From the IMG/VR virus record IMGVR_UViG_2526164667_000024: DNA of 13,270 nucleotides; one strand, given 5' to 3'. The position numbers are program-made. This document shows, piece by piece, positions 1 through 3,000 of this stretch. Position 1 is the stretch's first letter; every line of letters starts with the position of its first letter. Source of the stretch: a virus. Its lineage: Duplodnaviria > Heunggongvirae > Uroviricota > Caudoviricetes.

Positions 1-3000
1 GATGAGTTCGATAAACCCACCACCGATATCCGTAAGGACAGATGCAGCAAGTGCATGCGCGGGTGTGAGATGCGCGGCATGGTGGCTAATTTTGGCGGTT
101 TCCTTTCCATTAACAAACTTTCGCAGTAAATCCAATGACACAGACAGAATCAGCGATTCTGGCGCATGCCCGGCGGTGTGTGCCTGCGGAGTCGTGCGGC
201 TTCGTGGTGAGAACGCCGGAGGGGGAGCGGTATATCCCTTGTGTGAATATCTCTGCAGAGCCGGAGGCGTATTTTCGTATTGCACCGGAAGACTGGCTGC
301 GGGCAGAGATGCAGGGGGAGATTGTGGCACTGGTCCACAGTCATCCCGGTGGTCTGCCCTGGCTGAGCGAGGCCGACCGGCGGCTGCAGATAAAAAGTGC
401 ACTGTCCTGGTGGCTGGTCTGCCGGGGGGAAATTCATAAATTCCGCTGTGTGCCACATCTGACAGGACGGCGCTTTGAGCACGGGGTGACGGACTGTTAC
501 ACGCTGTTCCGGGATGCCTACCATCTGGCGGGAATTGATATGCCGGATTTTGAGCGTGAGGATGACTGGTGGCGCAACGGTCAGAACCTGTACCTGGACA
601 ATATGGCGGTGACTGGTTTTTACCGGGTTTCCCTGCCTTCCGCACAGCCTGGCGATATCCTGCTGTGCTGCTTTGGCGCATCGGTGGCCAATCATGCCGC
701 CATATACTGCGGCAACGGTGAGCTGCTTCACCATCTGCCTGAACAACTGAGTAAACGGGAGAGGTATTCCGAAAAATGGCAACGACGAACGCATTCAGCC
801 TGGCGTCACCGCCACTGGCACGTATCTGCCTTCACGGGGATTTACAACGATTTGGCCGCCGCCTCAGCCTGTATGTGAACACGGCAGCGGAAGCCATCCG
901 TGCCCTGTCGATGCAGATGCCGGGATTCCGCCGTCAGATGAACGAAGGCTGGTACCAGATACGTATTCGCGGTGAGGACACGGCACCGGAGGCGGTGTAC
1001 GCCCGTCTTCACGAACAGCTGGGTGAGGGAACGGTCATCCACATTGTGCCGCGACTGGCCGGGGCCGGAAAGGGTGGACTGCAGATTGTGCGGGGGGCGG
1101 CAGCCATCGTGGGGTCGTTCTTCACGGCCGGGGCATCAATGGCGTTATGGGGTTCAGCCCTGGCAGCCGGTGGTTTTTCTGCCACCACGATGCTGTTTTC
1201 ACTGGGGGCCAGCATGATTCTGGGTGGTGTGGCCCAGATGCTGGCCCCGAAGGCAAAAACACCGGATTACCGCGCAACGGATAACGGCAGACAGAACACG
1301 TACTTTTCCTCGCTGGATAACATGATTGCCCAGGGGAACCCGATGCCGGTGCCTTATGGTGAAATGCTGGTTGGCTCCCGGCGAATCTCCCAGGACATCA
1401 GTACCCGTGATGAAGGCGGTGACGGGAAGGTGGTGGTTATCGGGCGGCAGGCATAAAAGCGAAAAAATCCCGCAGTGACCGAAGGCTGCGGGAACAGAAA
1501 ATGAAGATTAACCACAGGGGGTTTTGTTTTTATTGGCCCGAAAAAACTGTAACGCCCGGGAATGATATCTGCCACGGGGGCGTACAGAAAATGTGAAGAA
1601 ATTCAGAAATTTTATTCCGTCATGACACAGGCACCCTCCGGGGTGCCTGTCGTTTTTGGGGTCGATAAACAGATTCAGACATCAGACAGGAGAGGGGGAC
1701 CGAGTGGGTAAAGGTGGCGGCAGGGCACACACGCCGGTTGAGGCAAAGGACAATCTTAAGTCCACGCAGATGATGAGCGTGATTGATGCCATTGGTGAAG
1801 GGCCGATTGAAGGTCCGGTGAAGGGGCTGCAGAGTATCCTGGTGAACAAAACCCCGCTGACGGACACGGACGGTAATCCTGTGATACATGGTGTGACAGC
1901 GGTCTGGCGCGCCGGGGAGCAGGAGCAGACACCACCTGAAGGCTTTGAGTCCTCCGGGGCGGAAACCGCACTGGGCGTGGAAGTGACGAAGGCAAAGCCG
2001 GTGACGCGCACCATTACGTCCGCGAACATTGACCGCCTGCGGGTCACCTTCGGGGTGCAGTCACTGTTGGAGACCACCTCAAAGGGCGACCGTAATCCCT
2101 CTTCTGTCCGACTGCTGATTCAGTTGCAGCGTAACGGTAACTGGGTGACGGAAAAGGATGTCACCATTAACGGCAAGACCACCTCACAGTACCTGGCGTC
2201 GGTGATTCTGGAGAATCTGCCTCCCCGTCCCTTTAACATCCGGATGGTCCGGGAGACGGCGGACAGCACCACGGACCAGCTGCAGAACAGAACGCTCTGG
2301 TCGTCATACACCGAAATCATCGATGTGAAACAGTGCTACCCGAACACGGCGATTGTGGGGCTGCAGGTGGATGCGGAGCAGTTTGGCGGTCAGCAGATGA
2401 CGGTGAACTACCATATCCGCGGTCGCATCATCCAGGTGCCGTCAAACTATGACCCGGAAAAACGCACGTACAGCGGCATCTGGGACGGCAGCCTGAAACC
2501 GGCATACAGCAACAACCCGGCCTAGTGCCTGTGGGACATGCTGACTCACCCGCGCTACGGCATGGGAAAACGTCTGGGGGCGGCAGACGTGGACAAATGG
2601 GCGCTGTATGCCATTGCGCAGTACTGCGACCAGACGGTGCCGGATGGTTTCGGGTGCACAGAGCCGCGGATGACCTTTAATGCGTACCTGTCACAACAGC
2701 GTAAGGCGTGGGACGTTCTCAGTGATTTCTGCTCGGCGATGCGCTGTATGCCGGTATGGAACGGCCAGACGCTGACGTTCGTTCAGGACCGCCCGTCGGA
2801 TGTGGTGTGGCCGTACACCAGCAGCGATGTGGTGGTGGATGATAACGGCGTGGGGTTTCGCTACAGCTTCAGCGCCCTGAAGGACCGCCACACGGCGGTG
2901 GAGGTGAATTACACCGACCCGCAGAACGGCTGGCAGACCTCCACGGAACTGGTGGAAGACCCGGAAGCCATACTGCGCTACGGGCGCAACCTGCTGAAGA

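Follow-up and report, generated by a model that had tools for sequence, protein, structure and literature searches.

A divergent PasB/EcOnc22-24-family small RNA gene in the enlarged I-J spacer of a lambdoid prophage

The I-J spacer and its two hairpins

Our analysis concerns a stretch of 13,270 nucleotides (nt) of Caudoviricetes DNA (IMG/VR record IMGVR_UViG_2526164667_000024; the whole stretch is called the window) and, within it, the spacer between the tail genes I and J. The window represents the tail end of a lambdoid prophage in an Escherichia coli of the enteropathogenic/enterohaemorrhagic (EPEC/EHEC) type. Across its entire length it is 99% identical to a prophage of the O26 strain DEC9B, and its genes run in the order L, K, I, J, lom, tail fibre, nleH, cif, IS3 and more effector-like genes. 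On the minus strand of the I-J spacer lies a small RNA (sRNA) gene (1461..1546), which a covariance model and the homologous positions in strains E2348/69 and Sakai identify as a divergent, window-type variant of the PasB/EcOnc22-24 family. The element is real but largely known, being a divergent member of an sRNA family that has already been described.

On its left, the spacer is bounded by tail assembly gene I (776..1456, plus strand, from the list of open reading frames (ORFs) and translation), which ends with a TAA stop codon at 1454-1456 and whose counterpart in the DEC9B prophage is named 'tail assembly protein' in RefSeq. The right boundary (1690..1706, plus strand) is formed by the J ribosome-binding site GAGAGGGGGA and the GTG start codon at 1704, from which a protein beginning MGKGGGRAHTP and resembling lambda J is read. 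The gap between the two genes (1457-1703) measures 247 nt, versus 60 nt in lambda, where I ends at 15444 and J starts at 15505. This bears out the claim of an earlier note on this DNA that the gap is expanded.

That note had also placed two hairpins in the gap, and both are found where it put them. The arms of the first, at 1468-1475 (TCCCGCAG) and 1486-1493 (CTGCGGGA), form eight perfect pairs. They are preceded by an A6 run at 1462-1467 on the plus strand, which is a U6 run on the minus strand, the only strand on which this hairpin has one. Its RNA folds at -14 kcal/mol (z = -2.7), a value equalled by 2 of 200 shuffles. The second hairpin (1627..1657) is on the plus strand. Its arms at 1627-1636 and 1641-1650 form ten perfect pairs, seven of them G-C, closed by the 4-nt loop UCCG and followed by CGTTTTT (CGUUUUU in the RNA), with the T-run ending at 1657, 47 nt before J. 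This G+C-rich stem-loop with an immediate U-run has the form of an intrinsic terminator; it folds at -24 kcal/mol (z = -4.0), and none of 200 shuffles equals it. A terminator scan of positions 1000-2200 called four sites, as against 1.2 expected. Their conservation across dozens of related spacers shows both hairpins to be more than chance.

A PasB-type gene on the minus strand

Two sets of published RNAs occupy the homologous position. PasB, from prophage PP6 of EPEC strain E2348/69, is an 83-nt, Hfq-dependent RNA confirmed by Northern blotting (Pearl Mizrahi et al. 2021, PMC8550237, Table S6). It was mapped to NC_011601 1466343..1466261 on the minus strand and detected with the probe AATCCCGCAGTGATCGCGGAGCT (PMC8550237). 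We found that this position lies between I (end 1466255) and J (start 1466496), and that the E2348/69 spacer aligns with that of the window over its full length, at 85% column identity and with both hairpins included. The hairpin preceded by the A-run is thus the PasB terminator. The earlier note had guessed that this hairpin terminates transcription on the minus strand, and the guess proved right, since it is the Rho-independent terminator (1462..1493) of an antisense sRNA gene of the Hfq-dependent PasB/EcOnc22-24 family, with the stem 1493-1486/1475-1468, the core CCCGCAG/CUGCGGG and then U6 (1467-1462). In RNA-seq of E2348/69, the baseMean values were 4.8 for I and 15 for J versus 482 and 1082 for pasB (PMC8550237). 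The tail genes are nearly silent while pasB is abundant, and in the lysogen the RNA is thus produced independently of them.

EcOnc22, 23 and 24 were described as Hfq-crosslinking peaks in the Sakai prophages Sp15, Sp14 and Sp11 (Tree et al. 2014, PMC4104026, Table S2/S3C), with a Northern signal of ~85 nt that was destabilised without hfq (PMC4104026). All three peaks map to I-J spacers, antisense to the tail genes. The published coordinates refer to NC_002695.1 and are shifted by ~128-146 nt relative to NC_002695.2; the shift was calibrated on AgvB by comparing its Rfam match with the coordinates of EcOnc01a. Read directly on NC_002695.2, the peaks would fall over the plus-strand hairpin, but this placement was rejected, as calibration moves them to the PasB position. 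The Northern probe for EcOnc22/23/24 (GGGAGAGAACGATGAAGATTAAC...) is the tail-sense strand adjoining the terminator in the Sakai spacer, and its sequence fixes the location independently of the calibration. Location and probe match together indicate that EcOnc22-24 are homologues of PasB. We found no paper that equates them, and EcOnc is not mentioned in the 2026 PasB survey. Identity with the anti-sRNAs AgvB and AsxR was also considered and rejected, because these sit at the PR' moron site. As evidence against its proposal, the earlier note had named related phages with an equally long spacer and no discrete small RNA; the relatives' spacer is long, and an RNA of ~83-85 nt was detected opposite the tail genes.

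The window copy belongs to this family by sequence and structure. Covariance model R1, built from 11 family representatives, none of them of the window type, matches positions 1461-1546 of the minus strand over its full length with 52.5 bits (E = 7.5e-9). The predicted RNA of ~79-95 nt would end at ~1461-1462, and its gene has the same layout as in E2348/69 and Sakai, namely in the I-J spacer, antisense to the tail genes and only 5-6 nt from the I stop codon. Its 8-bp stem and U6 also provide the 3' Rho-independent terminator with a U-tract that would serve as an Hfq-binding module. Globally, 61 of 83 nt are identical to PasB (73%). Megablast gave no match between the two and blastn aligned 52 of the 83 nt (63% query coverage), so that the window copy falls outside PasB as defined operationally by the settings of Zhu et al. 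2026 with the E2348/69 query. Searches of the window against Rfam found no match at gathering scores, and none at E up to 5 in 1400-1760; four homologous loci likewise gave no match, and PasB is absent from Rfam 15.

The window and PasB copies have in common the slot 5-6 nt past the I stop and its antisense orientation, the terminator arms, the U-run, the AAUCUUCAU core, the upstream conserved block and the plus-strand hairpin. They differ in that PasB has ACUCCUUCAC where the window has CCCCCUGUGG. The EcOnc22/23/24 loci likewise share with the window copy the I-J slot, the strand, a poor -35 element and an Hfq-bound RNA of ~85 nt (in the window, predicted); they differ in the 5' region and terminator loop, and their spacer is ~80% identical.

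From phage, genome and viral-contig collections we assembled 76 distinct spacers; grouped at 88% identity, their sRNA regions make up at least 12 clusters. Among 28 distinct sequences of the terminator, the arms are nearly invariant and the loop varies freely; two lineages carry compensatory CCCACAG/CUGUGGG arms. The family also has a conserved single-stranded core, AAnAAUAACUCCUUAAnnUUAAUCUUC, of which the window retains GUUAAUCUUCAU (1501..1512, minus strand) directly 5' of the terminator. This is the likely seed. Its AAUCUU is nearly invariant across the family clusters, and neither the fold of the window RNA nor that of PasB pairs this region. The seed of PasB has likewise been placed directly upstream of the terminator (Zhu, Shabalina & Storz 2026, bioRxiv 10.64898/2026.05.13.724894). 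The 5' half of the family core, ACUCCUUAAC, is CCCCCUGUG in the window variant, giving a putative window-type seed of CCCCCUGUGGUUAAUCUUCAU. With half of the core replaced, the target set of this variant may differ from that of the family. An RNA duplex scan of the sRNA against the translation-start regions of the window genes was uninformative, as background energies equalled those of the best matches. The body of the sRNA is predicted to be unstructured.

A candidate promoter region (1546..1589, minus strand) can be read from the sequence. P1 consists of a -35 element TTCTGT (1589-1584), 16 nt and a -10 element TATCAT (1567-1562), with a predicted +1 at ~1555. P2 is a -10-like TACAGT (TAnnnT; 1551-1546) with a predicted +1 G at 1539, and this start agrees within 1 nt with the reported 5' end of PasB. 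The sRNA may start from either. The E2348/69 homologue of P1 reads TTCACA-16-TATAAT on the minus strand, with 11 of 12 consensus matches, and so differs from the window in both elements. Upstream of P1 and P2 is a CRP-like site, TGTGA-AGAAAT-TCAGA (1592..1607, no strand assigned; TGTGAAGAAATTCAGA). It agrees with the consensus TGTGA-N6-TCACA at 9 of 10 positions, and the window has no other site of this kind (0.51 expected per 13 kb). The best-conserved part of the spacer (1590-1618) includes this site, all 13 of the BLAST-collected spacers contain it, and its distances from P1 and P2 are the same in the variants of the window, E2348/69 and Sakai. We hypothesize that CRP may control the sRNA promoter; the higher level of PasB in lysogeny broth than in Dulbecco's modified Eagle medium (PMC8550237) would fit catabolite control. 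In the spacer of one IMG/VR contig (L073), the CRP-like block and the right-hand module are kept and unrelated sequence replaces the PasB gene, with the breakpoint ~20 nt left of the block.

A probable inserted unit beside a lambda-type junction

The earlier note had counted the plus-strand hairpin as part of the expansion, and here it has to be corrected, as the 60-nt gap of lambda holds a hairpin and a U-rich tract at the same relative position. Like that of the window, the lambda hairpin is on the plus strand, is G+C-rich, is followed by the U-rich tract and stands directly upstream of the J ribosome-binding site. It differs in sequence (AAACCGCC-UGCG-GGCGGUUU) and is not called by a simple terminator scan. 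We know of no function assigned to it. In addition, phage HK022 has a plus-strand terminator before J, and spacers of the ST131 type keep the sRNA module up to TTTTAT(T/G)C and then continue into an unrelated right half with a strong hairpin of its own. Together these observations assign the plus-strand hairpin to a separate right-hand module and not to the insertion. Since Sakai Sp10 has no hairpin before J, it is also dispensable for the gene layout. Across 17 distinct variants of this hairpin, 98.2% of cells are paired. At one pair, four sequences have U-A in place of C-G, and G-U intermediates occur as well; statistically, the support is modest, as 12 of 500 shuffles reach the observed score. 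Q-modified RNA polymerase reads through terminators, and by analogy with lambda it is plausible that late transcripts terminate at the plus-strand hairpin unless the polymerase has been so modified. For a tail-sense small RNA ending at this hairpin, the table of Tree et al. holds no tail-sense peaks, and the accessible part of the EPEC interaction tables holds no I-J intergenic entry.

Several further observations concern this part of the locus. Between the plus-strand hairpin and the J ribosome-binding site, the window has a tandem TCAGACA repeat (two copies, 1674..1687, plus strand), which occurs in 2-4 copies in relatives (e.g. L005, L048). In the lambda gap (L009 296-355), AAAATGT-TTTAT stands immediately before the hairpin, and at the right end of the sRNA module the window has AAAATGT, 16 nt and TTTAT; this likeness may reflect a past deletion or insertion that left a scar, or be a coincidence in A+T-rich DNA. 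The spacers of the ST131 type and of phage 569R3 (L007, L013) are ~342 nt long. After TTTTATGC they carry an alternative right-hand module with a strong, two-way terminator-like hairpin (AAAACCCCGGUAUC-UGCUG-AUACCGGGGUUUCUCUUU) and ~100 further nt; one record annotates a doubtful 'tail fiber protein' there. Within J itself, codon 274 is an in-frame TAG (amber) in the window (2523-2525), as against W in lambda J (NNMAWCLWDM). J is thereby divided into ORFs 1656..2525 and 2538..5180, leaving the tail-tip gene broken. J is intact in the DEC9B prophage, and the J genes of Sakai Sp15 and Sp14 are annotated as truncated.

The I-J junction is short or differently filled in relatives, as is characteristic of a site that takes up morons. 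In HK022 it carries the annotated morons gp22 and srb (minus strand), with a minus-strand terminator beside I and the plus-strand one before J, and in Yersinia phage P400 the gap is 0 nt. In Sakai Sp10, sodC (Cu/Zn superoxide dismutase, minus strand; L151 19485-20335 = NC_002695.2 1963484-1964334) has been inserted into a PasB copy, right after its ...CAAAAACATTAAC and just upstream of the PasB body. The body and terminator are retained, and the upstream conserved block and plus-strand hairpin are gone. Sp10 is thus a natural promoter-deletion allele of a PasB-type gene, and the table of Tree et al. has no EcOnc peak at its PasB position. The HK022 and Sp10 morons resemble the PasB unit in being independent I-J units, the reverse-oriented ones having a minus-strand terminator beside I. 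They differ from it in that their cargoes encode proteins and that of the window is a non-coding RNA of ~80 nt. The unit in the window has its own terminator and a candidate promoter, and lysogen expression has been demonstrated for its homologues. A non-coding moron is the most apt description of the PasB unit. The suggestion of the earlier note that the extra sequence might be a small inserted element or a structured RNA was essentially right, the insert being an sRNA gene in a slot where other phages have inserted genes.

Based on these observations, we propose, with a probability of roughly 80%, that the 247-nt spacer consists of an inserted antisense sRNA unit of the PasB family and a lambda-type I-J junction module. 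Module 1 (~1457-1620) would be a self-contained moron directed against the late operon, with a -10 element at 1567-1562 or 1551-1546, the conserved CRP-like site (1592-1607) upstream and, as its product, a largely unstructured RNA of ~79-95 nt ending at the terminator (1493-1462) near the I stop. In the lysogen, with the late operon silent, the sRNA would be transcribed alone, bind Hfq and use the single-stranded stretch 5' of the terminator (GUUAAUCUUCAU) to pair with other mRNAs. Module 2 (~1621-1703), comprising the plus-strand hairpin with its U-run, the short repeat and the J ribosome-binding site, would stop stray rightward transcription in the lysogen and be read through by Q-modified polymerase during lytic growth.

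Several points weigh against this proposal. The -35 element of P1 is poor (2/6; the -10 scores 5/6), and a promoter scan of the window calls no consensus promoter; the same scan also calls none in the expressed Sakai copy, which has an equally poor -35. In E2348/69, a start at P1 predicts an RNA of ~98 nt versus the 83 nt reported. Measured from P1 the centre of the CRP-like site is at -44.5, and from P2 at -60.5; neither value is exactly the canonical -41.5 (class II) or -61.5 (class I), and the second half-site is without a key C. Covariation is thin, with one compensatory pair type per hairpin. The fold of the whole sRNA is no better than that of shuffled sequences (z = +0.1) and gives no structural support beyond the terminator, though this is what is expected of an unstructured Hfq-dependent sRNA. 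The RNA, its size, its strand and its Hfq dependence have been demonstrated in homologues only, and expression and targets of the window copy would follow by analogy with them. The literature gives no function or targets for PasB or EcOnc22, and a 2021 review lists EcOnc22 with its target unknown. Finally, the window prophage is defective (the amber codon in J), so its sRNA copy could be decaying.

This last point leads to the possibility that the window holds a decayed, silent relic of a PasB-type gene, in which the hairpins persist and no functional RNA is made. The weak -35 and the failure of the scan to detect a promoter would fit such decay, as would the amber codon at 2523-2525 and the replacement of half of the conserved core. 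The expressed Sakai variant has an equally poor -35, however, and the terminator, the -10 element and the upstream block of the window copy are intact. Moreover, 448 genome records and many Shiga toxin (Stx) phages carry the window-type spacer with 95-99% identity. On balance we consider a relic unlikely, though deserving of some weight. It is far less probable that the spacer is purely a control region of the late operon, in which nothing is transcribed leftward and the hairpins serve the rightward mRNA between I and J for attenuation, for processing or as a stability barrier. The plus-strand hairpin is indeed the strongest structure of the spacer, and lambda and HK022 also have one before J. 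Against this, the 1468-1493 hairpin has a U-run on the minus strand only, Sakai Sp10 is entirely without the plus-strand hairpin, and two laboratories have detected an antisense RNA of matching size in homologous spacers, which contradicts this explanation for module 1.

We give scarcely any credence to a coding function of the spacer. A 31-amino-acid ORF (1501-1596, plus strand) and a 73-amino-acid ORF (1354-1575, minus strand) do exist, and one phage record annotates a 'hypothetical protein' here. However, the ATG of the 31-codon ORF is ACG or ACA in the commonest variants, and indels shift its frame, leaving only the first four codons in common with E2348/69; the minus-strand ORF overlaps I and passes through the terminator. 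A small protein was therefore rejected, since the 31-codon ORF is not conserved among the variants. Equally remote is a mobile or repetitive element spread among prophages, like a miniature inverted-repeat transposable element or a repetitive extragenic palindromic element. Up to 10 copies per genome might suggest one, but copy number follows the number of lambdoid prophages. All copies inspected share both the I-J location and the orientation, and neither terminal inverted repeats nor target duplications are present. The fixed position and the lack of terminal repeats led us to reject this explanation as well.

A different question is where the RNA would act. Each PasB-type RNA is perfectly complementary to the I-J junction in the late mRNA of its own phage and of any incoming phage with the same variant, and it is conceivable, if improbable, that these RNAs act mainly in cis on such late mRNAs. 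A precedent might be STnc6030 of the Salmonella prophage BTP1 (Owen et al. 2020, PMC7067206), which is likewise prophage-expressed and antisense to late structural genes. That RNA is more than 700 nt long, overlaps coding sequence and acts as an antisense RNA in superinfection exclusion (PMC7067206), whereas PasB-type RNAs are short, intergenic, Hfq-bound and interact in trans. If action in cis were true, late transcripts could be cleaved or silenced over their J-lom-stf part by the prophage-made RNA, which would dampen the late genes or interfere with superinfection, like STnc6030 in BTP1. The dozen variants, with their hypervariable loops and 5' regions, would then be specificity types among the up to 10 co-resident lambdoid prophages of EHEC, and catabolite control through CRP would couple interference to growth conditions.

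Distribution of the family and its significance

Returning to the proposal of an inserted PasB-family unit, homologues of the spacer are present in 1296 of 5426 complete E. coli genomes, where they occupy 3 places per genome in the median and 10 at most, and all are unannotated. A scan with a conserved 23-mer (one genome per species) gave a credible match outside E. coli only in Escherichia albertii; matches on two tiny contigs (Asaia and Parendozoicomonas) look like contamination and the others are chance-like. This suggests that the family is essentially confined to Escherichia. Elsewhere in the window, positions 12425-12506 of the minus strand, in the gap between a DUF1076 ORF (11782..12384) and the ORF at 12555, hold a terminator-like hairpin, CCACAGGC-CCCGAAU-GCCUGUGG followed by UGUUUUUAU. 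The PasB model gives this segment 25 bits (E about 0.002 across the window), and GAAAAAUAACUC occurs both here and in the family core. Either a further small RNA or chance may account for the match.

The published survey of PasB gives a different picture, in which the gene is usually single-copy, nearly invariant and mostly found outside EPEC and EHEC (bioRxiv 10.64898/2026.05.13.724894). The survey used blastn with a word size of 28 and a query coverage above 75%. Only 15 of 52 distinct family sequences pass these settings, and the window and Sakai types are both excluded. The settings thus miss most variants of the family, including all of the EHEC ones seen here, and this probably explains the picture obtained. 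With a structure-aware model, EHEC prophages prove to be full of divergent copies whose seed regions differ.

The practical value of these findings lies in annotation and bookkeeping. A single sRNA family has been named separately by two laboratories, as EcOnc22-24 in 2014 and as PasB in 2021, and it accounts for an unannotated spacer in about a quarter of complete E. coli genomes and most long-tailed Stx phages. The CRP-like site and the natural sodC insertion in Sp10 offer direct handles on control of the sRNA. If the variants are expressed, O157, O26 and similar pathogens would possess several more Hfq-dependent regulators.

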